The notes beneath the pieces were generated by a model. That model was given only the letters and a program-made list of their open reading frames with translations, did no database searches and was not told where the DNA came from. Both the position numbers and the translations under genes were made by a program. 64,000 nucleotides of DNA from a bacterium (lineage in GTDB: Bacteria; Patescibacteriota; Patescibacteriia; UBA10025), in the NCBI GenBank assembly GCA_021815445.1, contig JAKAGM010000001.1, positions 531,710 through 595,709 of the forward strand. The letters are read 5' to 3'. This document shows, piece by piece, positions 97-16,537 of the stretch; position 1 is the first letter of the stretch; every line of letters starts with the position of its first letter.

Positions 97-1239
97 CTAG
101 CCTTCTATATCCTCTCCCCGCAAATCAGCTAGCTCTTTGAGCAGATCTTTTTCGCGCCTTGAGAGCTGTGCGGGAGTTTCCACCTGCACGGTCACGAGAT
201 GGTCTCCGCGCCCGCGTTTGCGCAGGTGGGTTACACCCTTCCCGTCCAGGCGAAATACTTTGCCCGACTGTGTCCCGTGAGGAATTTTGAGGATTACTTC
301 GCCGTCGAGCGTTTCAATGTGCACCTTAGTGCCAAGCGCCGCCTGTGAGAAGCCGACGGAAACGTCAGAATAGATGTCGTCCCCTTCCCGCCTGAAGTTC
401 GGATCGTTCGGTACTTTGATGCGGACAAAAAGGTCACCGGCCTCGGCTCCCCTGACCCCGGCGGCTCCCTTTCCCGACAGGCGGAGAGATTCCCCGTCGC
501 TGATGCCCGCGGGAATTTTTACGCTTATGGTCTCTTGGCCTGTCGTGCGCCCTTCGCCGTGGCAGACCGTGCATTTCTTCGAAGCTTTGCGCCCTTCGCC
601 GTGGCACTCAGGGCAGACTCCCATTTGTCTGAGGGCGCCGAAGAATGTCTGCTGGATATTTTGCACCTGTCCGCTGCCGCCGCATGTGGCGCACGAGACT
701 ATCTTTGCCCCGGGGTCGGCTCCGCTGCCGCCGCACCGCTTGCAGGTGATTTCTTTTTCTAGGGTGAGAACTTTGTCGGTACCAAAGGCCGCCTCATGCA
801 AAGATACGGTTACGGATATCTCGGCGTCATTGCCGCGGCGCACCTCACTTCGCGCCCGGCCTCTCGACCCGCCCATGCCGAAGATATCGCCGAAAATGTC
901 TCCGAGATCGCCGAAATCAAAATTGGCATTCTCGGTCCTAAACCCCCCGAACGGTCCTCCCCCGCGCGCAAAGTCCTCGGCAGAAAATCCGCCGAATCCG
1001 CCCGGGCCGCCGCCCTGTCGCCGCGCCTGGTCAAATGTCTGCCCGAACTGGTCGTACTGCTGGCGCTTCTCCTTGTTGCTTAGGGTTTGGTAGGCCTCGT
1101 TAATTTCTTTGAACTTTTCCTCGTCGCCGCCGTCCTTGTCAGGATGATGCTCATGCGCAAGCTTGCGAAACGCTTTTTTGATGTCAGCTTCGCTCGCGTC
1201 CTTCGGCACGCCTAAAATGTTATAAAAATCTTTTGCCAT
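97..1239 (-). CDS. dnaJ: Molecular chaperone DnaJ
   Basis: N-terminal J domain with HPD motif (HEHHPDK), Gly/Phe-rich linker, four CxxCxGxG zinc-finger repeats, C-terminal substrate domain. Confidence 0.9.
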   Translation of the reverse strand: MAKDFYNILGVPKDASEADIKKAFRKLAHEHHPDKDGGDEEKFKEINEAYQTLSNKEKRQQYDQFGQTFDQARRQGGGPGGFGGFSAEDFARGGGPFGGFRTENANFDFGDLGDIFGDIFGMGGSRGRARSEVRRGNDAEISVTVSLHEAAFGTDKVLTLEKEITCKRCGGSGADPGAKIVSCATCGGSGQVQNIQQTFFGALRQMGVCPECHGEGRKASKKCTVCHGEGRTTGQETISVKIPAGISDGESLRLSGKGAAGVRGAEAGDLFVRIKVPNDPNFRREGDDIYSDVSVGFSQAALGTKVHIETLDGEVILKIPHGTQSGKVFRLDGKGVTHLRKRGRGDHLVTVQVETPAQLSRREKDLLKELADLRGEDIEG

Positions 1240-1297
1240 AGTGTTGTGTATCTTTTCAGCATGACAGGATACCCCGTATCCAAGCTCCAGTCAAGGC

Positions 1298-2350
1298 CTA
1301 GAGTTCGAGGCGCTCCTTGCTGATCATGACTTTGCCGATGCGGACAAATCTGAACGCAGAAAGGACGCGGTAGACGATAAAAGAGAAAAACTGGATCAGC
1401 GGCTGATAGACAATATCGAATATTTTAAGCACGAAAAAGAGTGAAAGCGCCAGCACCGCCGGCAAAAACTTTTTGTACGGGGCCACATACTTTTCGAGCT
1501 GCTGGTTCACAATTTTTTCCACGATAACTTCCATCCTGTCAGTCCCCGACGCCGTGATGCCGAAGGTGGAGAGAAACTTCGCGCGGGCTTCGTCGGTCAA
1601 CTGCCCCTGCGCGCTGGCTAATCCTTCCTGGATTGATTTCTCTATTTCGGCGGTTCCCGGAAATCCCAGCGTCGTGGTTACCTGCTGTGAAGGTTGGACT
1701 GTCGACTCCCTGATGAACTCATCAAGCGTCATGTCCGGCGAATAGTGGGCGACATAGCGCGGAAGAACTCTGTCCACGGAAACAACGGCAGTCTTTACGA
1801 TACCGCTGAGGAGCCGCTCCGACTCCTGCCGGGTGATAAGGAAGGAATAATAGGTGAATGACACTGAGAGCAGAATGAGCGAAATGGCTATGCCCAATCC
1901 TGCCGGAATCACTTGGCTGACTTTGAAGCTGATGCGAGTCTCCATATCACTCCGGATATTCTTGCGCCAGAGAATGAAAGCCAAAATCATAGCTATAATG
2001 GCGATCATGTTCGAAAGGCTCACGGGGAAAAAAGCGACATGGCTCAGGGCTCCGACAGCCACGATGACGTAAAAAACCAGACTTCGCTGGATAAGCAATG
2101 CTGTCAGACCCACGACGGCAAACATGAGCGCAAAAGCGAACAGAACGAATGCGAACGTCAGGAGCGTGTCGAGACGGAGCGAAAATCCCTCGCCGCTCTG
2201 GAAAATCCTGAAAAACGTAAACCAGAAAAATGCCATCGATGTCACTGTCAGCGCGCTGAGAATGGTAAGTTTATGCAACGGTTGCGGGACCGGTTTTTCT
2301 TTTTGGGCTTGGAGCGCCTGCTCTTCCTGCGTAGGTTTTTCAATTCGCAT
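1298..2350 (-). CDS. Hypothetical integral membrane protein
   Basis: 350 aa ORF with multiple hydrophobic helices at both ends and a soluble central segment; no recognised family. Confidence 0.55.
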   Translation of the reverse strand: MRIEKPTQEEQALQAQKEKPVPQPLHKLTILSALTVTSMAFFWFTFFRIFQSGEGFSLRLDTLLTFAFVLFAFALMFAVVGLTALLIQRSLVFYVIVAVGALSHVAFFPVSLSNMIAIIAMILAFILWRKNIRSDMETRISFKVSQVIPAGLGIAISLILLSVSFTYYSFLITRQESERLLSGIVKTAVVSVDRVLPRYVAHYSPDMTLDEFIRESTVQPSQQVTTTLGFPGTAEIEKSIQEGLASAQGQLTDEARAKFLSTFGITASGTDRMEVIVEKIVNQQLEKYVAPYKKFLPAVLALSLFFVLKIFDIVYQPLIQFFSFIVYRVLSAFRFVRIGKVMISKERLEL

Positions 2351-2548
2351 AAGGATATGTTACTCAGTGTACCATCGCGTCCACCATCAGACAATCATGC
2401 GCAGATCGCATGTTTACCGATTTCTGATTTTGGCAACGTTCTTCCCGATCGGAACAGGTGTGATATCAAACTTCTCTCTATTTAATCAGGTTTATAGGGA
2501 CTTTCTTGAAGCTAGGGAAGTTATTCCCAGCTTATCCACTCTGCGGTC

Positions 2549-2577
2549 TTGACCGGTTTTTCCAGTAAGAGTAGCAT
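2549..2577 (+). promoter_or_regulatory. Sigma70-like promoter (TTGACC-17nt-TAGCAT) in front of a GC-rich non-coding stretch
   Basis: Hexamers read directly, 17 nt spacer; no convincing ORF downstream. Confidence 0.35.
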
Positions 2578-3068
2578 GCTCATTACGTCTTTACGTTCTT
2601 TCCATTCCACGAACTTTGTCGGTGACTATTACCGGCTCGATGCTCACAATGGATGGGGGTGAGAGACTTCTCTCGATCAAACTCTCCGTGAGTTATGACG
2701 CGACAACGTCGCACCCTTTCAAGTCGGAACACCTCGGAAACTTTGACGTTTCCGTGACTCAGGTAGTCGGACCTTTATATGGGAGGCCTGACTGCTGGAA
2801 CATTTCCGGCGTCATCTACTGAGCTCGAGAAAGCGCGATTGCATTTGATGCGGGGATTTGGCCGGGAGGAATCCAGGCCGCAGCCTCCGTGCTGACCCCC
2901 AAGGACCTTACGGTCCGCCCTTGCCCATTGCGGGCAACTGTACCCATCGCCCCAGGGCGATGATATCTGCACTTTGCGCCAGGTTTCCCGACACGGCCCC
3001 AAGATCCTTTGATGACACACCTCCTCATTGAATCGCGGGGCTGTTTTTCTTTGGGTGAAAAAACGCTC

Positions 3069-3096
3069 TTGACTTCATCTGACAGGGCATTATACT
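3069..3096 (+). promoter_or_regulatory. Sigma70-like promoter (TTGACT-16nt-TATACT) for a candidate small RNA
   Basis: Near-consensus -35 and -10 hexamers; about 165 nt downstream is a strong intrinsic terminator. Confidence 0.5.
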
Positions 3097-3102
3097 ATCG
3101 AC

Positions 3103-3271
3103 GTGTTCTTCGGATACTACCCGGCTGGGCAATGAATTCGGGGATTCATCCCACCCGGCGCTACGCGCAATGCTTCTCCGCTTACAAGGAAGGCGAGGAC
3201 GACCAGAGTCCAAAACGGAGTTGCGCACGTAGCAGGGCTCGGCAAATGATACTGCGCCGAGCCTGTTTTTT
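3103..3271 (+). ncRNA. Candidate small non-coding RNA, about 170 nt, identity unknown
   Basis: Bounded by promoter 3069-3096 and terminator 3237-3271; no ORF with an RBS fits inside; convergent with DUF3467 gene. Confidence 0.35.
3237..3271 (+). terminator. Rho-independent terminator (GCTCGGC...GCCGAGC stem plus T6)
   Basis: Perfect 7 bp GC-rich stem followed by TGTTTTTT. Confidence 0.6.
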
Positions 3272-3279
3272 ATATCCCG

Positions 3280-3585
3280 TTATCCGTGGAACCCGATCTC
3301 ACTATTCATCGGGGCCTTTGCGACCTCGATGGTCCCGAAGTTCTTTTCATATTTCTCTATATTATCTTTGAGCGCGCCGAGGACCCGCTTCATATGGCCC
3401 GGCGAGAGGATCACCCGCGCATTGACGATGCCCGCGCGCTGGAGCGGATAGACATTCATAAAATCGAGGACGAATTCCTCCTTGGAATGCGCCACTGACA
3501 TCATGTTCGCATAGATGCCTTTCATCGTGGCGTCGTCTATCTTAATTTGTATCTGCTGCCCTTCGGGGGCTTGCTGTCCGTTCAT
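3280..3585 (-). CDS. DUF3467 family protein
   Basis: About 100 aa; conserved EFVLDF...ILSP.H.KR...AL..N..KYE..FG core typical of DUF3467. Confidence 0.75.
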   Translation of the reverse strand: MNGQQAPEGQQIQIKIDDATMKGIYANMMSVAHSKEEFVLDFMNVYPLQRAGIVNARVILSPGHMKRVLGALKDNIEKYEKNFGTIEVAKAPMNSEIGFHG

Positions 3586-3702
3586 AGTGCGTTGGGATTA
3601 GTGGATAAATGTTAATAATAAACTGCATATTGACATTGGCACCTCATATGCGTAAGCTGTGGTTAATAACATCGCACAAACAGGGAAACGAGGAGGAAGT
3701 CC

Positions 3703-3942
3703 ATGAGGATTTTCATTACAGATGTTGAGGTGTTGGGGACAGAGTTGATAGTCCGCTCAAATTTACGGAGATGGGCGTATCATCTCTCAGACGTCATTTC
3801 CGGCGTGCTTTCTATCGAAGAGATCGTCGAGGATAGCGAGTCCGAGGAATTGATCGTCACGGCAGATGGCGTTAAACTCCGTCTCTATACTTGGAGACAG
3901 GCTGCCCTCGGCGAACGGTCCAAATCCTGCCTCGCCGCGTAG
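3703..3942 (+). CDS. Hypothetical small protein (79 aa)
   Basis: AGGAGGA RBS 7 nt upstream of ATG; followed by terminator at 3973-4004. Confidence 0.5.
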   Translation: MRIFITDVEVLGTELIVRSNLRRWAYHLSDVISGVLSIEEIVEDSESEELIVTADGVKLRLYTWRQAALGERSKSCLAA

Positions 3943-3972
3943 GTCTGACCGACTAACGCAATGTTCCTGCCC

Positions 3973-4004
3973 CCTGCCGCCCCGTTTGACGGCAGGTTTT
4001 TTTA
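3973..4004 (+). terminator. Rho-independent terminator (CCTGCCG...CGGCAGG plus T8)
   Basis: 7 bp stem followed by TTTTTTTT. Confidence 0.6.
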
Positions 4005-4111
4005 TTCATGAGCGCTTGCACATCTTAGTAGTACATGGTAAAGATGACAATGAGTATACGTTAAACGAAAGTAATGCACAATTGTTCTGTCACATGCGGA
4101 GGGAGGGAAGT

Positions 4112-4183
4112 ATGCGGTTCGAGATAGCAAATTGGTGCTTTGATAACACCCGCGGAATTGTCCTTTTGCATCTGAGGGCCTGA
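4112..4183 (+). CDS. Putative 23 aa peptide with strong RBS (MRFEIANWCFDNTRGIVLLHLRA)
   Basis: GGAGGGAGGGAAG directly upstream of ATG; weak terminator-like hairpin plus T-tract follows. Confidence 0.2.
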   Translation: MRFEIANWCFDNTRGIVLLHLRA

Positions 4184-4243
4184 TTAAGCTTTACGGTCAT
4201 TCCAGGCCCCCGGCACACGCTGACGGGTCTTTTCTTTTTTGCA

Positions 4244-4278
4244 TTGACAAAGAGCAAACAACTGCTAGACTGGCGATA
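4244..4278 (+). promoter_or_regulatory. Sigma70-like promoter (TTGACA-17nt-TAGACT) for the small membrane protein gene
   Basis: Hexamers read directly. Confidence 0.4.
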
Positions 4279-4331
4279 TCTGTTAAGAATTGATGAGGAA
4301 TATAATTGCTCATTCGAGGAGGGGTACTAAA

Positions 4332-4493
4332 ATGGAAACGTTCAAATCGTGGCCTGGATGGGCACAGGCGCTGACGGTTATCGTCGGCATCATTCTCGTC
4401 CTGGCTGCGGTGGGCTATCGCTTCATCGAGCTGATGAAACAGATTCCGTCCGAATCAAAGGACGAATCGGCGCAGAGCTCTGCACGAACCTGA
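4332..4493 (+). CDS. Small membrane protein (53 aa, single TM helix)
   Basis: GAGGAGGGG RBS upstream of METFKSW; hydrophobic helix ALTVIVGIILVLAAVGY; ORF track start at 4290 is probably too early. Confidence 0.45.
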   Translation: METFKSWPGWAQALTVIVGIILVLAAVGYRFIELMKQIPSESKDESAQSSART

Positions 4494-4622
4494 TCTTCAT
4501 CGGTCATTCATCCAGATCGCTGACTCCGCACGATACAACTATGTGGAGTCTTTTCTTATAGTGGTAACCCTGTAGGGGTCAAGCAAGCTTGACCCGATTT
4601 TCTAAAAGTCGAAGCTTTGCCC

Positions 4623-4904
4623 CTACTTCTTTCTCGGCCCGCGATACAGGACTTTAAACTTCAACCGGCTCACGTTCTGGTTCTTTTTCGCCTTTGAACC
4701 ATGTGCGCCGATCGCCCACACGTTAATACCCGCTTTGCCTTTTTTCTCGTCTGTGGACGTGACTGCCACGTCGAATTCAACGAACGAACTTGATGATTTG
4801 CTGTCTGTCGTTATCCAAAAGAGATGATTGCCGGCCTTGTTGGCCGCCTCAATACCCTTGGCAATGTTTGTTAATGTCGTGGTGATAAATTGGTCGAGTT
4901 GCAT
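4623..4904 (-). CDS. Hypothetical protein with trypco2-like (trypsin-co-occurring domain 2) signature
   Basis: 93 aa; VEFDVAVTxT...GKAGINVWAIGA...RLKFKV pattern resembles the trypco2 domain seen in conflict systems; preceded by conserved hairpin-pair leader. Confidence 0.5.
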   Translation of the reverse strand: MQLDQFITTTLTNIAKGIEAANKAGNHLFWITTDSKSSSSFVEFDVAVTSTDEKKGKAGINVWAIGAHGSKAKKNQNVSRLKFKVLYRGPRKK

Positions 4905-4919
4905 AATATTCTAGCTTTC

Positions 4920-4968
4920 GCACCCTAGAGAGGGTGCTCTCCTTGTCATGCCGAACTTGATTCGGCAT
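4920..4968. repeat. Hairpin-pair motif copy A (GCACCC-N6-GGGTGC and ATGCCGAA-CTTGA-TTCGGCAT)
   Basis: Perfect inverted repeats read directly; lies in the 5' leader of the minus-strand gene 4623-4904. Confidence 0.7.
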
Positions 4969-4980
4969 CTTTATCAAGCT

Positions 4981-5178
4981 TTAGTTTCCTAGGAACTTCA
5001 AAGCGCCATAGACCAGGAATATCGGCCAGATGATTGCCTTAAGGAATCCAAGCACACCCGCCCAAAAAGTCGCTGCCACGGAAATATAATAAATCGCGGC
5101 GCCGATGAAACCTAACCCATAGACCGCCTCTCCGCCACGCTTTGTAACATTCACGTCCATCATATATGCCATGTACAT
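4981..5178 (-). CDS. Small hydrophobic membrane protein (65 aa)
   Basis: Two predicted TM helices; tightly packed between island genes. Confidence 0.4.
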   Translation of the reverse strand: MYMAYMMDVNVTKRGGEAVYGLGFIGAAIYYISVAATFWAGVLGFLKAIIWPIFLVYGALKFLGN

Positions 5179-5202
5179 TTAATAATTAGCCTTGTCATGC
5201 CC

Positions 5203-5715
5203 TCATTTTACCCTCCCGAGAAAGTAATCATCAATAGCCCGCACGAGCGCCACGGGTTTGGCGTCGAACGACCATTCTTTCTTTTCCCGCTTGGCGTCGT
5301 TCTCGAGTATTAATTGGAACCTGTTCGACTTGGTGAGGATGCATTTCGGCGGAGTGGCGTGAAAATGCCACGGCGTGCCATCTTGGACGAACTGTTTCAC
5401 CATCTCAAGCGCTTCATGGTCAGCTGGCCCGAAATCCCCCTGTGCCTGCAAGTATGCGCGTCCTTCAAGCTCCTCGCGGAGTTCTTTCGTACTCCGGCAG
5501 TAGATATTCCCCTGCGGCGTCTCAAGCAAAATAATCTCCTTGCCGGTGTCATTCATGAAGCATTCGGGCGAAAGGCAATGATGATGCCACGCCGTGCCCA
5601 TGCGGACGGTCCTTTGCTCAGCGTCGTCGTATTCTACGTATTTTGCGTCTTCGGATATCATATATTCTGTACTTTCTTTCGCACCCTCGAAAGAGTGCTC
5701 TTCTTTATCCACCAT
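5203..5715 (-). CDS. Hypothetical protein with duplicated G-T-x-W-H-x-H ... C motif (WHH-like); likely true start at 5661
   Basis: Internal repeat GTAWHHHCLSPEC and GTPWHFHATPPKC; the first 18 codons overlap a conserved leader hairpin, so the ATG at 5661 is favoured. Confidence 0.5.
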   Translation of the reverse strand: MVDKEEHSFEGAKESTEYMISEDAKYVEYDDAEQRTVRMGTAWHHHCLSPECFMNDTGKEIILLETPQGNIYCRSTKELREELEGRAYLQAQGDFGPADHEALEMVKQFVQDGTPWHFHATPPKCILTKSNRFQLILENDAKREKKEWSFDAKPVALVRAIDDYFLGRVK

Positions 5716-5798
5716 CCTGAACTTGATTCAGGATCCCGAATTAAATACCTTGGCAGATTACCTCGGGATGCCGAATCAAGTTCGGCATGGGGACAGCT
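5681..5798. repeat. Hairpin-pair motif copy B (GCACCC hairpin, CCTGAA-CTTGA-TTCAGG, ATGCCGAA-TCAAG-TTCGGCAT)
   Basis: Inverted repeats read directly; same stems as copy A. Confidence 0.7.
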
Positions 5799-5839
5799 AA
5801 TTATCTCCGAGCGTGGCCCGCCGCGGCCGCGCTCGCCTG

Positions 5840-6286
5840 TTAAAGTCCCAGTACTTTCTCCAATATCGGATGTGAAAAATACGCCAGTACATCAAAGTCC
5901 TTATCTGCCAATTCAATCATTTCATGGCCCGGCCGTTCAATAAGTTTGAACCCCGGCTTGTCGAGGTATGCTTTCTTAAACGCCGGGTAATCACTCACCG
6001 TGAAGTCCGCGTCTCCTCGCTCTGGCCGGTTCGGATCCGGTTTCCGTATTTTTACAATTCGCAACGGCCCGGCAACGGTTTCAAACGACTCAACGAGATA
6101 CACGTTACCCATTTTGGTACTCTGAATAACCTTGCCTATTTTCGCAACCATCGCTTCGAGCCTTTGATACTCATCATCTGATTGAGAAAAAATACAGGCA
6201 TAATTCACCGGCGCGTTTTTCTGGTCCGTGTGGAGGTCCTTGAGCTTGCGCGCTTGGGAAACAATGTTCTGTACAATTGAAATCAT
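5840..6286 (-). CDS. Hypothetical protein (148 aa), immediately downstream of SIR2-like gene
   Basis: ORF with ordinary composition; no recognised family. Confidence 0.5.
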   Translation of the reverse strand: MISIVQNIVSQARKLKDLHTDQKNAPVNYACIFSQSDDEYQRLEAMVAKIGKVIQSTKMGNVYLVESFETVAGPLRIVKIRKPDPNRPERGDADFTVSDYPAFKKAYLDKPGFKLIERPGHEMIELADKDFDVLAYFSHPILEKVLGL

Positions 6287-6357
6287 GTTTTTCGTGTTCT
6301 TTCTTTGAATGTTGTATCCTCAGATATCATATGGTTGTTGTTGGGGCATATTTACTT

Positions 6358-7449
6358 TCAAATTTTATTGTAATTTTCTACAAATGTTTTAAAACCATTT
6401 TTAAAAGATGTATTCGATGGATCGAAGAATACCTTCCCTTTTTGGAGTTTTTTTGGATGTCGTTTAATCACTCTTTCCATTATTTCTGTTGCGCCTTCAA
6501 CACTATTGCTCACCACGTGGAGTATCGGGGGTTTCGAGGTTGTATACTTTTCTATCCAGTCATGTATTAGCTCATCATTTGCTTGATAGCCAATCAAGAA
6601 TATCTGACTAACATTTGGAAAGAGTGTTTTAGCTCCCTCTTCTATTTTTTTACCTAACTCGGGAATATGTGAATAAATTTTTTCGGATAGTGGGAGAAAT
6701 ATTAACGGCTGGAAGTAATCCCATCCAAAATCTTGGGAATATATTGAGTCTCGCTTTTGTAAAAAGTTATGACCAGGATCGTAATATTTATAATCAGTTA
6801 GAGCCAGCCCACTACCCTTAAATAGATTAACTGAGGCAAACCGATATCTATTTTGCCAGTCATTATCGGCGCTTTTACCTGGAATGCCACCATCTTCTTG
6901 TCTTTTCTGACCGAGCCAGTTAACTGATCCGTGCGGCTTTAGTATTTTTTGCGTTATGTATGAATCGACATTGTCTAATGGCCTGCTCCAAACTTTAGTA
7001 AAAGCAATATCAAACAGGGTGTCATAATTAAAATTAATGAACGCATGGTGAATGTCTTTCTGCGTTTCTTCGCGAAGTATTATTAAGAGCTTTTTATAAA
7101 GGCTATTATTCCCTGGATGTGTCGAAATCGTTTGAAACATCCAACGTAAGTAATGTGCAAACTTTCCAAGGTCGCCTCTGAGAGAGATCGCGGCCTCCGC
7201 GGTATATCCCTCTCCACCTTGATTTGAGTACTTCCATAATTCACTTAGCCAATCTTCTAAACTACGATCTTTTTTGGTTCTTTCAAATGTGGCACGAAGG
7301 TAGTTAATATCAAGGCTAAGCTCCTCGGCATATTCTTCATAAACAGAATTTAATAATTCATTTGCAAGAGGGGCCTGATATTTATTGTTATCTACATTTT
7401 TATTTGTAGATCCTCTAGAGGCACCCGCACCGAAGATAAAGAGTTTCAT
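6358..7449 (-). CDS. SIR2-like domain protein (SIR2_2 / defence-associated sirtuin family), putative NAD+-consuming effector
   Basis: N-terminal FIFGAGASRG Rossmann motif, NYDTLFD (catalytic Asn) and KPHGSVNW (catalytic His), third strand IFLIGYQANDE; gene is AT-rich (about 38% GC) against 50-55% surroundings. Confidence 0.8.
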   Translation of the reverse strand: MKLFIFGAGASRGSTNKNVDNNKYQAPLANELLNSVYEEYAEELSLDINYLRATFERTKKDRSLEDWLSELWKYSNQGGEGYTAEAAISLRGDLGKFAHYLRWMFQTISTHPGNNSLYKKLLIILREETQKDIHHAFINFNYDTLFDIAFTKVWSRPLDNVDSYITQKILKPHGSVNWLGQKRQEDGGIPGKSADNDWQNRYRFASVNLFKGSGLALTDYKYYDPGHNFLQKRDSIYSQDFGWDYFQPLIFLPLSEKIYSHIPELGKKIEEGAKTLFPNVSQIFLIGYQANDELIHDWIEKYTTSKPPILHVVSNSVEGATEIMERVIKRHPKKLQKGKVFFDPSNTSFKNGFKTFVENYNKI

Positions 7450-7492
7450 AATTACTACCGCCCCCGAGTTTTCCCGGAGGCGTTTTAATTAC

Positions 7493-9424
7493 CTATTTAC
7501 TTTTCGCAGACCCTGAGGTTCCTGAAGGGTTGACCTCCTCATACTGGGCGTCCACGGGTCCCTTGTCATCCTTTTTCTGCTCTGCTCCTTTTGCCTGGCC
7601 TTGGGGACTGCCTTGAGGGGGCTGCTGGCCCTGGTACATCGCCTGGCCTATCTTCTGGATAGCCTGTGAGAGTTCGTCGTGGGCCTTCTTTATTGCCGCG
7701 GCATCGTCGCCGTCTTTCACTTTTTTGAGCGCATCAATCTTTTCTTGCACCTCTTTCTTGGTCTTGTCGTCTACTTTGCTTCCGGCGTCTTTGAGTGACT
7801 TCTCGGACGTATAGACGAGGGATTCTGCCATGTTGCGCATATCAATTGTCTCTTTCTTTTTCTTGTCATCTACGGCGTGCGCCGCGGCTTCCTGCTTCAT
7901 CTTTTCCACTTCGTCTTTTGACAAGCCTGAGGACGCGGTGATAGTGATGGACTGTTCTTTGCTTGTGGCCTTGTCTTTCGCTTTCACATTCAGTATGCCG
8001 TTCGCGTCAATGTCGAAGCTGACCTCTACCTGCGGCACTCCACGGGGCGCCGGCGGAATGCCCGAGAGCATAAACCGTCCGAGCGACTTGTTGTCACCTG
8101 CCATGGGGCGTTCGCCCTGCAGGACGTGGATTTCCACTGACGTCTGGTTGTCCGCGGCTGTGGAGAATACTTGCGACTTGGATGTCGGGATAGTGGTGTT
8201 GCGGTCAATCAACGGTGTCATAACACTGCCGAGCGTCTCTAACCCTAGCGTGAGCGGCGTGACATCAAGCAAGAGAATGTCTTTTACATCTCCTTGAAGA
8301 ACGCCCGCTTGGACAGCCGCGCCGACTGCAACTACTTCGTCAGGATTCACGCCGAGGTGCGGTTTCCTGCCAAAGAACTTCTCGACTGTCTGTTGAACTA
8401 AGGGCATACGAGTCATACCGCCGACCATAACTACTTCCTGGATGTCGGACGTCTTGAGTCCTGCGTCATCCAGCGCTTTTTGCGTCGGGCCCATGGTCTT
8501 TTGCACCAGGTCCCCTACCAGATCTTCCAACTTAGCGCGGGACATCTTGAGGAGCAAGTGCTTCGGTCCTGATGCGTCAGAGGTGATGAACGGCTGGTTG
8601 ATTTCAGTTTCCATCTGCGTCGAGAGCTCCATCTTTGCCTTTTCAGCTGACTCCTTGAGACGCTGTAAGGCGAGCTCATCCTTGCTGAGGTCGATGCCTT
8701 GATCCTTTTTGAACTCTTCAGCAATCCAATGAATAATCACCTGGTCAAAGTCATCACCGCCCAAGTGCGTGTCGCCGTTGGTCGCTTTGACTTCCACCGT
8801 GTCTTTTGAAACTTCGAGGATGGAAATGTCGAATGTACCGCCGCCGAGGTCGTAGACGGCTATCTTTTCATCCTTTTTCTTGTCGAAACCGTAGGCAAGC
8901 GCCGCCGCTGTCGGCTCGTTGATGATGCGGCGGACTTTGAGACCGGCGATTTCACCGGCGTCTTTCGTCGCCTGGCGCTGTGAGTCGTCGAAATACGCGG
9001 GGACAGTGATGACAGCTTCTTCGATCTTTTCGCCGAGCTTGTCCTCTGCGTCAGCTTTGAGCTTCGAGAGCACCATCGCAGAGATTTCCTGCGGCGAGTA
9101 TTCCTTGCCGCCCATCTCTACTTTGACGCCCTGCCCCGACTGGACCATCTTGTAGGGCATGAGCTTGAGGTCTCGCTGAACCTCGGCGTCGTCGAAGCGT
9201 CGTCCGATCAGGCGCTTCACTGAAAAAATAGTGTTCTTTGGGTTGACGACGGCCTGGCGCTTGGCCGACATGCCGACGATGCGTTCTCCTGTCTTGGAGA
9301 CGGCGACGACTGACGGAGTCGTCCTGTTGCCGTCTTTGTTTTCGATGACCTTCGGTTCGCCGCCCTCCATGACTGCCATGGCTGAGTTGGTCGTACCGAG
9401 GTCTATTCCGAGAATTTTTGACAT
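7493..9424 (-). CDS. dnaK: Molecular chaperone DnaK (Hsp70)
   Basis: [16 protein letters not shown] and other Hsp70 signatures; 643 aa. Confidence 0.95.
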
Positions 9425-10072: not shown

Positions 10073-10477
10073 TTACTTGGATATTTTGACAGGGACTTTT
10101 TTGGGCTTTACCTCCTCCGCTTTCGGAATAGTGACTTTCATCAAACCGTTATGGAAGTGCGCCGAAGCCTTGTCAGCCTGTACGTGGGTCGGGAGAGCGA
10201 TGCTCCTATAGAAACTCCCGGACCTGACTTCCTTGCGGTAGTAATTCTTCTCATCCACTTCACTCTTTTTTTCCATGTTGCCTTCGATCTTGAGAACGTT
10301 GTCCTCGACGGTAATGCTAACTTTCTCCGGGTCCACGCCCGCAAGCGCAGATTCTACGTAGACATTGTCTTTGTCTTCATAGACATCCATCGCCGGGACG
10401 AAAGACTGGGGTATGCCCTCAAAAAACCTGTCAAAGGCGTCAAGGTCTGTCCATGGATTCCATCGTATAATTGCCAT
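10073..10477 (-). CDS. Hsp20 / alpha-crystallin family small heat-shock protein
   Basis: Alpha-crystallin domain pattern (DVYEDKDNVYVESALAGV ... GLMKVTIPK). Confidence 0.85.
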   Translation of the reverse strand: MAIIRWNPWTDLDAFDRFFEGIPQSFVPAMDVYEDKDNVYVESALAGVDPEKVSITVEDNVLKIEGNMEKKSEVDEKNYYRKEVRSGSFYRSIALPTHVQADKASAHFHNGLMKVTIPKAEEVKPKKVPVKISK

Positions 10478-10516: not shown

Positions 10517-10663
10517 TTACGAGCAACAATCTCCGTGCTTGCCGCACATGCACTCATGTTTTTCGCCGTGTTCTTGAGACTTACCATCTTTGCAGCAGTC
10601 ATCATCGGAACCTTGGTGAGAGTGCTTTTTATCTGCCGGGCTCTGCTTGTGTGTATTGTCCAT
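10517..10663 (-). CDS. Putative 48 aa Cys/His-rich metal-binding peptide (MDNTHKQSPADKKHSHQGSDDDCCKDGKSQEHGEKHECMCGKHGDCCS)
   Basis: Not in ORF track (under 60 aa); AGGAAA RBS 5 nt before ATG; 7 Cys and 6 His; between grpE and hsp20 on the same strand. Confidence 0.35.
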   Translation of the reverse strand: MDNTHKQSPADKKHSHQGSDDDCCKDGKSQEHGEKHECMCGKHGDCCS

Positions 10664-10691: not shown

Positions 10692-11222
10692 TTATTCAGC
10701 TATTTTGACCTTTGCCGCCTGGAGGGTTTTGCCGTGGTATATGTAGCCGGGCTGTATTTCCTCGAGAATCTCCCCGTGCTCCTTGCCTTCAATCTTTTCC
10801 TTTGCCACCGCTTCATGGAGCTCAGGGTCAAATGTTTTTCCGGCTGTCTCTATCTCGTGGATATTGATGTTTGAAAGCAGCGTCTTGAATTCGGTGGCGA
10901 TATGCTCTATACCTTTCATCCACTGGTGCGACTTCTGCTCCTGCGGGGCGTGCTTCAGCGCGAGCTTCAGGTGGTTATAGATGGGTAGCAGTTCGATAAT
11001 AAGCGCCGCATTGGCAAACTGGACAATCTCCTGCTCCCGTTTCGCGGAATCTTTCTTGAGATTCAGGTAATCGGCTTTCGCCCGCTTCCAACCGTTCAGA
11101 TATTCTTCCGCAATCTTTTTCGCTTTTACGAGTTCATCAGTTGGACGCTCGGGCTTCTTCGGGGCGTCGTGAACTTTTTCGGGTTGAGCTGGAGCCGGCT
11201 TGGGCTGGACGTCTTCAGGCAT
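10692..11222 (-). CDS. grpE: Nucleotide exchange factor GrpE
   Basis: GrpE coiled-coil and C-terminal beta domain; overlaps hrcA stop. Confidence 0.85.
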   Translation of the reverse strand: MPEDVQPKPAPAQPEKVHDAPKKPERPTDELVKAKKIAEEYLNGWKRAKADYLNLKKDSAKREQEIVQFANAALIIELLPIYNHLKLALKHAPQEQKSHQWMKGIEHIATEFKTLLSNINIHEIETAGKTFDPELHEAVAKEKIEGKEHGEILEEIQPGYIYHGKTLQAAKVKIAE

Positions 11223-11934
11223 GGGGGTTCTGTTGTGAAGTTTCTAAAAGCTCCTGGGCAAACCTGAGACGGCATGAGTTCGCCGCGTAATCCATCCGCA
11301 TGGGTCCCACAATAGCCATCACAGAGTTTTTTCCGTCATGAGTATACTGCATCATCATGGTACCGCATTCTTTGCCAAACGGATTTTCGCTCCCGATCAG
11401 CGTTTCGATTTCACGTTTCACATTTGGGAAAATATCGTGGACAATGTCATCGAGGTGGTCGATGACTTCTGTGATATGCGAAATGATATTGAAGTCCCGG
11501 AACTCCGGCTGAGAAAAAAGACATGAGATGCCGGTGTAATAAATGTCATCGGGTGAAAAAGCCACGACGACGGCCTCCTGTGAAAGCTCGGCAAGCGCTT
11601 TTGCCAGCCGTTTTGTCTTGGCTTCATAGTCCGGTGCATCGGCAACGGCATCGGTAAGAGCGCCTTTCTCTTTTGTCGCTAACTCTTTTTCATGGACGAG
11701 ATTATCGAGATAATACTTCCAGCCCTTTTCGGTGGGAATTCTGCCAGCTGAGGTATATTGGTGGGTTAAATATCCCTCTTTTTCAAGCTCCATCATGTCG
11801 TTACGAACGGTGGCCGGAGATACACCAAGCTGGTACTTATCCACAAGCAGCTTAGACCCTACTGCGCCGCAGTTCCTGATGTGTTCATTGATTATTGCGC
11901 TAAATAAAGCGATTTTTCTGTCATTCGTACTCAT
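11215..11934 (-). CDS. hrcA: Heat-inducible transcription repressor HrcA
   Basis: N-terminal winged-helix (SKLLVDKYQLGVSPATVRNDMMELEKEGYL), HrcA C-terminal domain; CIRCE immediately upstream. Confidence 0.85.
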   Translation of the reverse strand: MSTNDRKIALFSAIINEHIRNCGAVGSKLLVDKYQLGVSPATVRNDMMELEKEGYLTHQYTSAGRIPTEKGWKYYLDNLVHEKELATKEKGALTDAVADAPDYEAKTKRLAKALAELSQEAVVVAFSPDDIYYTGISCLFSQPEFRDFNIISHITEVIDHLDDIVHDIFPNVKREIETLIGSENPFGKECGTMMMQYTHDGKNSVMAIVGPMRMDYAANSCRLRFAQELLETSQQNPHA

Positions 11935-11966: not shown

Positions 11967-11993
11967 TTAGCACTCTATGGTCAAGAGTGCTAA
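11967..11993 (-). promoter_or_regulatory. CIRCE operator (TTAGCACTC-N9-GAGTGCTAA), HrcA binding site
   Basis: Perfect match to CIRCE consensus, located 33 nt upstream of hrcA start. Confidence 0.85.
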
Positions 11994-16422: not shown

Positions 16423-16440
16423 CTTAACCTGGCTGCTGTC

Positions 16441-16537
16441 ATCCTGAATTTATTTCAGGATCTTAACAAAGATTGTAAAGATGCTGAATCGGGTTCAGCA
16501 TGACAAACGCGGCGCGCACCCACAGCAGCGGGGTGCG
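16441..16537. repeat. Hairpin-pair motif copy C (ATCCTGAA-N5-TTCAGGAT, ATGCTGAA-TCGGG-TTCAGCAT, GACAA, CGCACCC-N8-GGGTGCG)
   Basis: Same architecture as copies A and B; between peptidase gene start and tgt stop. Confidence 0.65.

Follow-up and report, generated by a model that had tools for sequence, protein, structure and literature searches.

Several described antiphage systems rely on effectors with a SIR2 domain, including ThsA of Thoeris, the DSR1 and DSR2 proteins, the SIR2-Argonaute system SPARSA and the SIR2-HerA complexes, and in ThsA, DSR1/DSR2 and SPARSA the effector is presumed to act by depleting NAD+. The DNA considered here is a stretch of 64,000 nucleotides (hereafter, the window) of an 877-kb metagenomic contig assigned to the Patescibacteriota, in which a gene for a 363-residue SIR2-like protein lies directly behind dnaK, in an enlarged interval between dnaK and dnaJ. 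A preliminary description of this DNA took about 5 kb of the interval to be a single accessory island with a multi-gene conflict module. We think it rather likely that the interval is instead a mosaic, in which a solo SIR2 gene encoding a stand-alone NAD+-consuming effector has been captured in a variable slot adjacent to dnaK. Such a mosaic would be made up of core chaperone-operon genes (DUF3467 and a membrane protein by dnaJ), of vertically inherited lineage genes (p148, p152, tm65, tm53 and probably Trypco2), of structured non-coding DNA, and of a lone cassette acquired by horizontal transfer, the SIR2-like gene, which shares the strand of dnaK.

The SIR2-like gene named in the preliminary description is present, and although its Pfam SIR2_2 match (E = 9 × 10−4, 19.8 bits) falls below the cut-off of 24.5 bits, its fold and motifs are clear, and some of its homologs have a precomputed PF13289 match. 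The motifs GAGAS, FNYD and KPHGSxNW, which correspond to the nucleotide-binding loop and the catalytic Asn/Asp/His motifs of SIR2 enzymes, are intact. Across 58 aligned homologs, G7-A8-G9-A10, F140-N141-Y142-D143 and K171-H173-G174-S175-N177 are invariant, and S11 is conserved in at least 90%. The AlphaFold2 model (predicted local distance difference test, pLDDT, 93) adopts the SIR2 (Rossmann) fold, into which a helical segment (residues 35-129) is inserted, and Foldseek places it closest to SIR2 subunits from the antiphage SIR2-HerA complexes (E = 10−7 to 10−5, template modeling (TM) score 0.5-0.6), followed by the SIR2 protein of SPARSA (8jl0) and human SIRT2, both with a TM score of about 0.4. 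When solved structures were searched with a profile, PsSIR2 from the Paenibacillus SIR2-HerA complex (8w9l) aligned at the NYD and HGSxNW motifs. In the proposed reading, a trigger such as phage infection would cause the protein to degrade NAD+ (NADase activity) or to transfer ADP-ribose, leading to cell arrest.

The resemblance to described systems is nevertheless partial. The SIR2 subunit of SIR2-HerA (PDB 8wld, 8w9l, 8su9, 8sub) is the best structural match, is similar in size (about 340-400 residues) and has motifs that align, whereas the identity to the window protein is only 13-15%, the family of the window protein behaves as a single-gene cassette, and no gene for a HerA-type ATPase adjoins the SIR2 gene in the window or in the five other loci inspected for it (L002, L005, L007, L152 and L153; relatives and other family members are referred to by such locus numbers). 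ThsA, DSR1/DSR2 and SPARSA share with it the SIR2 Rossmann fold, the GAGxS loop and the catalytic Asn and His, whereas the window protein, at only 363 residues, has no SLOG domain, TIR partner, Argonaute or large sensor domain. Within the interval of the window no TIR gene, SLOG domain or Argonaute partner was found, and the combination of ThsA with ThsB that Thoeris requires is thus absent. PADLOC, which the preliminary description had suggested as a check, recognized no defense system in the interval and gave only weak SIR2 matches (E = 10−5).

The SIR2-like protein belongs to a family of which 171 homologs were detected, mostly of about 340 residues and with source-assigned names that are mostly of Patescibacteria. 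The neighbors of family members differ in all six contexts examined, and in five of the six the gene is lower in GC, by 0.10-0.16, than its own locus. Together, the changing neighborhood and the low GC relative to the locus indicate that the family moves horizontally as a single-gene cassette. The window gene fits this pattern with a GC of 0.373 and a GC at third codon positions (GC3) of 0.324. A gene for a protein of about 190 residues lies upstream of the SIR2 gene in three loci (L002, L005 and L007) and was considered as a conserved partner; the three proteins are not homologous to one another, and the candidate was rejected. On a contig of a Chloroflexi metagenome-assembled genome (L153, 4904-7044), a SIR2-family gene follows a co-oriented ThiF/E1-like gene at a distance of 72 nt, which may be coincidental.

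A SIR2-like gene lies right after dnaK, or one gene further on, in three related genomes, namely the window, L002 and L011, with the L002 and L011 proteins 54% and 23% identical to that of the window and with GC3 values (0.30 and 0.22) well under those of dnaK in the same genomes (about 0.6-0.68). The same place is taken by other low-GC3 genes in relatives, including one for a 190-residue protein in L002 (0.35) and one for a 394-residue TIR protein in L009 (0.34). The TIR protein is matched by Pfam TIR_2 (E = 2 × 10−23) and by the PADLOC models PDC-S66 (E = 4 × 10−54) and ThsB (E = 10−28), and its gene has no SIR2 gene beside it. In L013 the slot holds a gene for a HEPN_Cthe2314-like protein followed by one for a membrane protein that is also found in L016, and the interval of L002 contains, farther along, genes for a Fic protein (matching SoFic/PDC-S04), a GIY-YIG protein and two NUDIX proteins. 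When the gene immediately past dnaK was tallied for 34 genomes, the count was GIY-YIG four times, NUDIX and DUF4405 twice each, and DUF559, TIR, HEPN, RpiB, a methyltransferase, HD and others once each. The slot past dnaK is a general site of insertion that often, though not in every genome, holds conflict-type genes. In the proposed scheme, the site 3′ of dnaK is a variable insertion slot in Patescibacteria, where immune-type or toxin-type genes of low GC have settled repeatedly in this clade. An HD_4 protein is conserved within the interval of L008, L009 and L018.

This arrangement is reminiscent of the defense and insertion hotspots that lie beside core genes, in that a fixed site, here dnaK, is associated with differing low-GC genes, several of them immune-type (SIR2, TIR, HEPN, GIY-YIG). 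It differs from such hotspots in that the cargo usually amounts to one or two genes without an integrase or other mobile hallmarks, is mixed with metabolic genes, and sits inside an operon rather than between operons.

The operon is of a familiar kind. A perfect CIRCE (controlling inverted repeat of chaperone expression) operator, the binding site of HrcA, stands directly upstream of hrcA, which marks the entire locus as a classical heat-shock operon under HrcA control. The 43-nt gap between dnaK and the SIR2-like gene contains a hairpin without a run of T residues, and on the minus strand a simple scan detected neither promoter-like nor terminator-like sites over the whole distance from dnaK through the Trypco2 gene. 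Since no terminator-like site separates the two genes, read-through into the SIR2-like gene from the CIRCE-controlled operon is plausible, and the gene is probably transcribed in this way. The same facts could be taken to mean that the SIR2-like protein is a sirtuin-type regulator of the heat-shock operon, an NAD-dependent deacylase or ADP-ribosyltransferase that acts on DnaK, DnaJ or their clients rather than in immunity, with the interval as accessory content of the stress response; the co-orientation of the gene behind dnaK in all three genomes, and the lack of a terminator-like site, agree with this. We regard such a role as unlikely. The three SIR2 genes are so divergent, and their GC3 so far below that of their hosts, as to suggest independent acquisition over inheritance; most members of the family are not located beside dnaK; the predicted fold is nearer to the NADase-type SIR2-HerA subunits than to deacetylase sirtuins; and in relatives this slot is occupied by TIR or HEPN genes.

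Other points weigh against the notion of a captured, autonomous immune effector. We know of no characterized precedent for a solo SIR2 protein without a sensor or partner, searches of phages, plasmids and IMG/VR contigs, any of which might have served as a vehicle of transfer, did not reveal the family, and the window protein is below the Pfam cut-off and matched weakly by PADLOC. The slot also holds non-defense genes in other genomes (NUDIX, RpiB, methyltransferase, HD), and position alone, consequently, implies no immunity. The recurrence of SIR2 genes past dnaK in three genomes could reflect a functional tie to the chaperones, and the low GC of the SIR2 gene could be due in part to amino-acid composition.

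The features of the window that bear on this discussion are listed in Table 1.

Table 1. Genes and other features of the hrcA-dnaJ region, in window coordinates (position 1 is the first nucleotide of the window).
Feature	Coordinates	Strand	Remarks
dnaJ	97-1239	minus	downstream anchor of the interval; Pfam DnaJ, DnaJ_C, DnaJ_CXXCXGXG
350-aa membrane protein	1298-2350	minus	conserved neighbor upstream of dnaJ
Non-coding stretch	2351-3279	plus	two plus-strand units, about 2583-3068 and about 3100-3272
DUF3467	3280-3585	minus	Pfam E = 5 × 10−25
79-aa open reading frame	3703-3942	plus	GAGGAGG ribosome-binding site; terminator-like hairpin downstream
23-aa open reading frame	4112-4183	plus	GGAGGG ribosome-binding site; recognized from sequence only
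tm53, 53-aa membrane protein	4332-4493	plus	preceded by promoter-like site 4244-4271
Trypco2 (Pepco-type), 93 aa	4623-4904	minus	Pfam PF19631, E = 1.3 × 10−5
Trypco2 leader	4915-4974	minus	H1 unit (4941-4974), then hairpin H2 (4915-4944); covariance model R1, E = 1.4 × 10−10
tm65, 65-aa membrane protein	4981-5178	minus	open reading frame
p152, tandem W-H-x-H...P-x-C domain protein	5203-5661	minus	homologs of 152-155 aa
p152 leader	5676-5795	minus	inverted pair of H1 units (5762-5795, 5707-5740), then hairpin H2 (5676-5705); covariance model R1, E about 10−8
p148, YecM-like VOC-fold protein (predicted)	5840-6286	minus	family widespread in CPR/DPANN
SIR2-like gene, 363 aa	6358-7449	minus	begins 43 nt past the dnaK stop
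dnaK (HSP70)	7493-9424	minus	upstream anchor of the interval; Pfam HSP70
Zn-ribbon gene, about 130 aa	9656-10048	minus	between hsp20 and dnaK
hsp20	10073-10477	minus	
grpE	10692-11222	minus	
hrcA	11215-11934	minus	
CIRCE operator (HrcA binding site)	11967-11993		upstream of hrcA; zero mismatches to TTAGCACTC-N9-GAGTGCTAA

The order of genes given in the preliminary description, hrcA-grpE-hsp20-dnaK followed, after about 5 kb, by a membrane protein gene and dnaJ, all on the minus strand, is borne out by the coordinates of the open reading frames (ORFs), with the addition of a Zn-ribbon gene that the earlier gene list lacked. The Zn-ribbon protein keeps its position between hsp20 and dnaK in the close clade, at 24-59% identity. 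Between grpE and hsp20 there is also a minus-strand ORF of 48 codons (10517-10663; MDNTHKQSPADKKHSHQGSDDDCCKDGKSQEHGEKHECMCGKHGDCCS) that is rich in Cys and His and may, judging from its composition, encode a metal-binding peptide.

For comparison, the surroundings of dnaK were retrieved for the 80 loci closest by DnaK sequence (71-83% identity), all of them from metagenome-assembled or single-cell genomes of Patescibacteria, and homologs of every window gene were located in them; both dnaK and dnaJ are visible in 62 of the 80. The prevailing order is hrcA-grpE-(hsp20)-dnaK-(DUF3467)-dnaJ, and dnaK and dnaJ are usually 15-2400 nt apart, often with DUF3467 between them. The closest clade stands out by an enlarged gap, which measures 6.3 kb in the window and 9.7 kb in both L008 and L009 and exceeds 10 kb in L018 and 11.7 kb in L002. 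Among related loci only these five are above 6 kb; intermediate gaps are found in L010 (3.0 kb) and L015 (2.6 kb). Independent expansions of 4-8 kb occur in some unrelated lineages, and ORFs in them resemble, by eye and outside any Pfam scan, NUDIX, HAD, MazG-like, deaminase and IS200-like genes. One such ORF, in the expansion of another lineage (L118, 4855-5442), has an HxH/Y1-transposase-like motif and is IS200-like by eye. In a DnaJ-anchored scan of Joint Genome Institute (JGI) metagenomes, full-length identity did not exceed 56%, too low for a close relative, and the L003 contig was missed.

The interval is thus indeed enlarged and variable, but it does not have the boundaries of a discrete element. 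Its content varies from genome to genome within the close clade, with many singleton ORFs, and in the closest relative (L012, single-cell genome AM-311-L03) a tm53 homolog is located about 117 nt past dnaK, convergent with it, which means that the block from the SIR2-like gene to Trypco2 is absent there. Near or in the interval of the window there is no tRNA gene, no flanking direct repeat and, by Pfam, no integrase or recombinase domain. Composition tells against a mobile island as well: GC3 is 0.71 for DUF3467, 0.67 for dnaK, 0.65 for p152, 0.64 for the 350-residue membrane protein, 0.62 for Trypco2, 0.58 for tm65 and 0.52 for p148, and the SIR2-like gene, at 0.32, is the sole one to deviate. 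An NADase-type effector among small proteins of unknown function, as previously proposed, is therefore retained in the form of one compositionally foreign candidate, whereas its neighbors, with host-like GC3, are mostly native.

Two genes of the interval are part of the operon itself. DUF3467, which the preliminary description had named and which Pfam identifies at 87.8 bits against a cut-off of 25, is found in the dnaK-dnaJ gap of 27 of the 62 loci, and is for this reason a core operon gene and not island cargo; its position suggests a chaperone-linked role for this family of unknown function. Copies of the 350-residue membrane protein, 20-40% identical, precede dnaJ in L008, L009, L010, L015, L018, L093, L098, L148 and others, and in several other lineages ORFs of similar length with similar N-termini, compared by eye and not aligned, are found in this position. 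Both genes are core neighbors of dnaJ.

These comparisons bear directly on the proposal that the whole of the 5 kb is one accessory island in which SIR2, p148, the WHH-like protein, the membrane proteins and Trypco2 form a co-functional conflict system. The enlargement of the interval relative to most relatives, the many small genes of unknown function, the SIR2 fold, the leader shared by two of the genes and the presence of a Trypco2/Pepco-type domain known from defense modules (bioRxiv 10.1101/2025.11.14.688446) are all in keeping with it. Yet only the SIR2-like gene is foreign in composition, DUF3467 belongs to the operon, and neither a PADLOC system nor an integrase, tRNA or direct repeat accompanies the genes. 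In other genomes SIR2 homologs are found without any of the other genes, p148 alone in unrelated contexts and p152 without SIR2, and this co-occurrence analysis has already largely refuted the single island, which we consider very improbable. The findings that the preliminary description had named as contrary to its own proposal, conserved core neighbors of host-like composition and genes that do not travel together, are largely those made here.

The p148 protein was regarded as an orphan, and in fact has more than 795 homologs at 55-72% identity in many lineages of the candidate phyla radiation (CPR). Its AlphaFold2 model (pLDDT 97.7) has YecM (1k4n) as the top Foldseek match (TM score 0.76, E = 10−6), with glyoxalases and extradiol dioxygenases also matching, and by this model p148 is predicted to have the fold of the vicinal oxygen chelate (VOC) superfamily in its YecM-like form, with paired beta-alpha-beta-beta-beta units. 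The folds of p148 and Escherichia coli YecM are alike, whereas their identity is 11% and p148 has no Pfam match; to our knowledge, E. coli YecM is itself without a known function. A fold of this metabolic-enzyme type is at odds with a place for p148 in a conflict system, as is its distribution. It is found in the same interval in L008, L009 and L018; elsewhere its neighbors are unrelated. A homolog of 56% identity (L091, 6001-6462) is encoded on a contig with archaeal genes for ribosomal proteins S24e and S27e and for Spt4, which makes the p148 family common to CPR bacteria and a DPANN-like archaeon.

The gene for p152 had been listed as an ORF of 170 codons (5203-5715) that starts too early; with the true start at 5661 the product has 152 residues, in agreement with its homologs. 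The protein is a tandem repeat of a unit of about 70 residues with invariant W-H-x-H and P-x-C motifs, and the duplicated W-H-x-H motif of the preliminary description is, to this extent, real. An assignment to the WHH nucleases was rejected, since six family members have no Pfam WHH match at E up to 5, and no convincing Pfam family was found for the p152 relatives scanned. A full HMMER search with the p152 profile retrieved 121 distant relatives (representatives), and the unit occurs in single-repeat (77-80 residues), tandem and eight-repeat forms and in fusions to an HD domain (P0249, P0280, P0296, P0315). In five relatives (L008, L009, L010, L013 and L029) p152 follows dnaK without any SIR2 gene, which again separates these two members of the supposed module.

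Trypco2/Pepco proteins are known from modules in which a neighboring trypsin-like or caspase-like protease cleaves their C-terminal tail (PMC7159879; bioRxiv 10.1101/2025.11.14.688446). The window protein passes the Pfam cut-off (25.8 bits against 24.2), as its earlier description as trypco2-like implied, and a 60%-identical Trypco2 is encoded at the same relative position in L002. The Trypco2 domain is thus common to the window and the Pepco (Trypco1/Trypco2)-protease modules, whereas the protease that defines these modules (PMC7159879; bioRxiv 10.1101/2025.11.14.688446) is absent: no peptidase domain was found in 97-9424, where the neighbors of Trypco2 are the 65- and 53-residue membrane proteins, and there is no protease partner in L002 either. 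At 93 residues it is also shorter than the characterized Pepco of 117 residues, and may be without a cleavable tail. The lack of a protease beside it is one more argument against a co-functional conflict system.

The two tiny membrane proteins reported before are present. By eye, tm65 has two hydrophobic transmembrane stretches, and a 62%-identical tblastn match adjoins dnaJ in L150. One hydrophobic stretch is seen by eye in tm53, and the homologous ORF of 52 codons in L012 (12047-12205) validates tm53 as a gene. The 79-codon ORF has a coding-like GC by codon position (0.54/0.40/0.61); it has no Pfam match and no homolog in the fetched loci of relatives, large protein collections not having been searched.

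The leader shared by the p152 and Trypco2 genes, which the preliminary description had recognized as a pair of hairpins, is genuine: a repeat of 55 nt (4915-4969) matches 5676-5735 at 83-87% identity, with compensatory changes in the stems. It is composed of a palindromic unit, H1 (GAT-N-C-N-G-N-A / TCAAG / T-N-C-N-G-N-AT-GACA), and a hairpin, H2 (GAGCACYCT-N4-AGGGTGCGAAAG). Of the eight stem pairs of H1, three have changed on both sides among 16 copies taken from six genomes; 96% of the cells remain paired, as compared to 19-51% in shifted-register controls. A covariance model finds only five H1 units, at three sites of the window: a single unit precedes Trypco2, and inverted pairs precede p152 and, at 16434-16508, a Big_5/Peptidase_C39 gene. 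In relatives, 27 of 36 H1 matches lie inside the hrcA-dnaJ span, which makes up 38% of the sequence searched (binomial p about 9 × 10−6, where paired matches are not independent), typically before hsp20, before or just after dnaK, or before hrcA beside CIRCE, and often as inverted pairs; carriers include L009, L016, L018, L050, L061 and L065. H2 is found again after the L011 SIR2 gene, with a compensatory change, and a related copy is located past dnaK in L015. Because of these copies, the leader is a clade-wide element of chaperone operons and is not private to two island genes.

The H1/H2 element could be an operator, a site of RNA processing or stability, or a REPIN-like repeat. Like the palindromes of the REP (repetitive extragenic palindromic), BIME (bacterial interspersed mosaic element) and REPIN type, H1 is a palindrome of 21-27 nt with a conserved asymmetric loop and flank, often arranged in inverted pairs in intergenic DNA, within operons in the case of H1, and its stems co-vary between species. 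It departs from these in that only five units are found in 64 kb and that they are enriched in one type of operon rather than spread genome-wide. A reading of H1 or H2 as a variant of CIRCE was rejected, as the spacing and arms differ and the true CIRCE is present elsewhere, and so was a reading of H1 as a sigma-70 promoter with the ATGACA flank as the −35 box, as inspection of the sequence showed inconsistent spacing to −10-like hexamers between copies. That the leaders of p152 and Trypco2 carry an element which, in relatives, precedes hsp20, dnaK and hrcA suggests that both genes are integrated into the regulation or RNA processing of the operon, and argues that they belong to it rather than being newly arrived. 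The same element can be counted in favor of the sirtuin-type heat-shock regulator discussed above.

The stretch of about 900 nt described as GC-rich non-coding DNA (2351-3279) contains no convincing gene and does have plus-strand promoter-like and terminator-like signals, whereas its overall GC of 0.517 compares with 0.502 for the window, and values of 0.54-0.56 are confined to 2500-3250. Promoter-like sites at 2549-2577 and 3069-3096, and terminator-like hairpins with runs of T residues at about 3030-3060 and 3235-3272, bound two units of about 470 and 170 nt. The minimum free energy of folding has z-scores of −4.2 for 2583-3068 and −2.7 for 3100-3272; in a sliding control, other intergenic windows of the interval reach −3 to −5 and coding windows are near 0. 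Since these other intergenic windows fold equally far below random, the signal is typical of hairpin-rich intergenic DNA and is no proof of a large RNA, and a large non-coding RNA in 2351-3279 was set aside as weak. Rfam 15 has no match in 2200-4700 at E up to 10, and ARAGORN also found nothing there. An ORF within the stretch (2616-2822) has a coding-like GC3.

A further possibility is that neutral insertions and decaying genes, none with a selected function, have piled up in the interval as in a junkyard, with the SIR2-like gene as an inert passenger and the 900 non-coding nucleotides as the remnant of a gene. The heterogeneous cargo of the slot, the singleton ORFs and differing content of close relatives, and about 930 nt without a recognizable gene or a homolog in relatives would all be expected in that case. 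We find this distinctly improbable, as the SIR2 ORF is intact and of full length with every invariant residue of the family kept, p148 and p152 are strongly conserved, and the plus-strand units combine paired promoter-like and terminator-like signals with below-random folding energy. Moreover, comparison of the non-coding stretches with the loci of relatives by blastn, nhmmer and tblastx found nothing except the tm53 region in L012, and no gene fragments.

A solo SIR2 gene captured behind dnaK thus accounts for the interval better than an island, a regulator or a junkyard does in our judgment, and a bolder extension of it can be formulated, which we hold to be rather doubtful. The slot 3′ of dnaK would, throughout the phylum Patescibacteria, capture single-gene effectors that degrade NAD or nucleic acids (solo SIR2, TIR, HEPN and GIY-YIG), and heat-shock read-through would wire suicide immunity to the proteotoxic stress caused by phage. 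The clade-specific H1 and H2 would act as punctuation for the RNA processing or regulation of these additions to the operon, and the solo SIR2 family (about 340 residues, at least 171 members, mostly CPR) would be a new, partner-free defense gene that both senses and kills.

Current understanding is not overturned by these observations, whose chief value is to correct the reading of the locus as a multi-gene conflict island. The comparison has also shown DUF3467 to be a conserved member of the dnaK-dnaJ operon, hinting at a chaperone-linked role, has brought to light p148 as a highly conserved, predicted YecM-like protein of CPR bacteria and at least one DPANN-like archaeon, and has revealed a palindromic element tied to chaperone operons across Patescibacteria. 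If the solo SIR2 gene is indeed an autonomous NADase defense gene, the known SIR2 systems would be joined by a minimal one, reduced to a single gene and typical of CPR bacteria, and the locus would be a concrete example of a heat-shock operon with immune cargo inside it.

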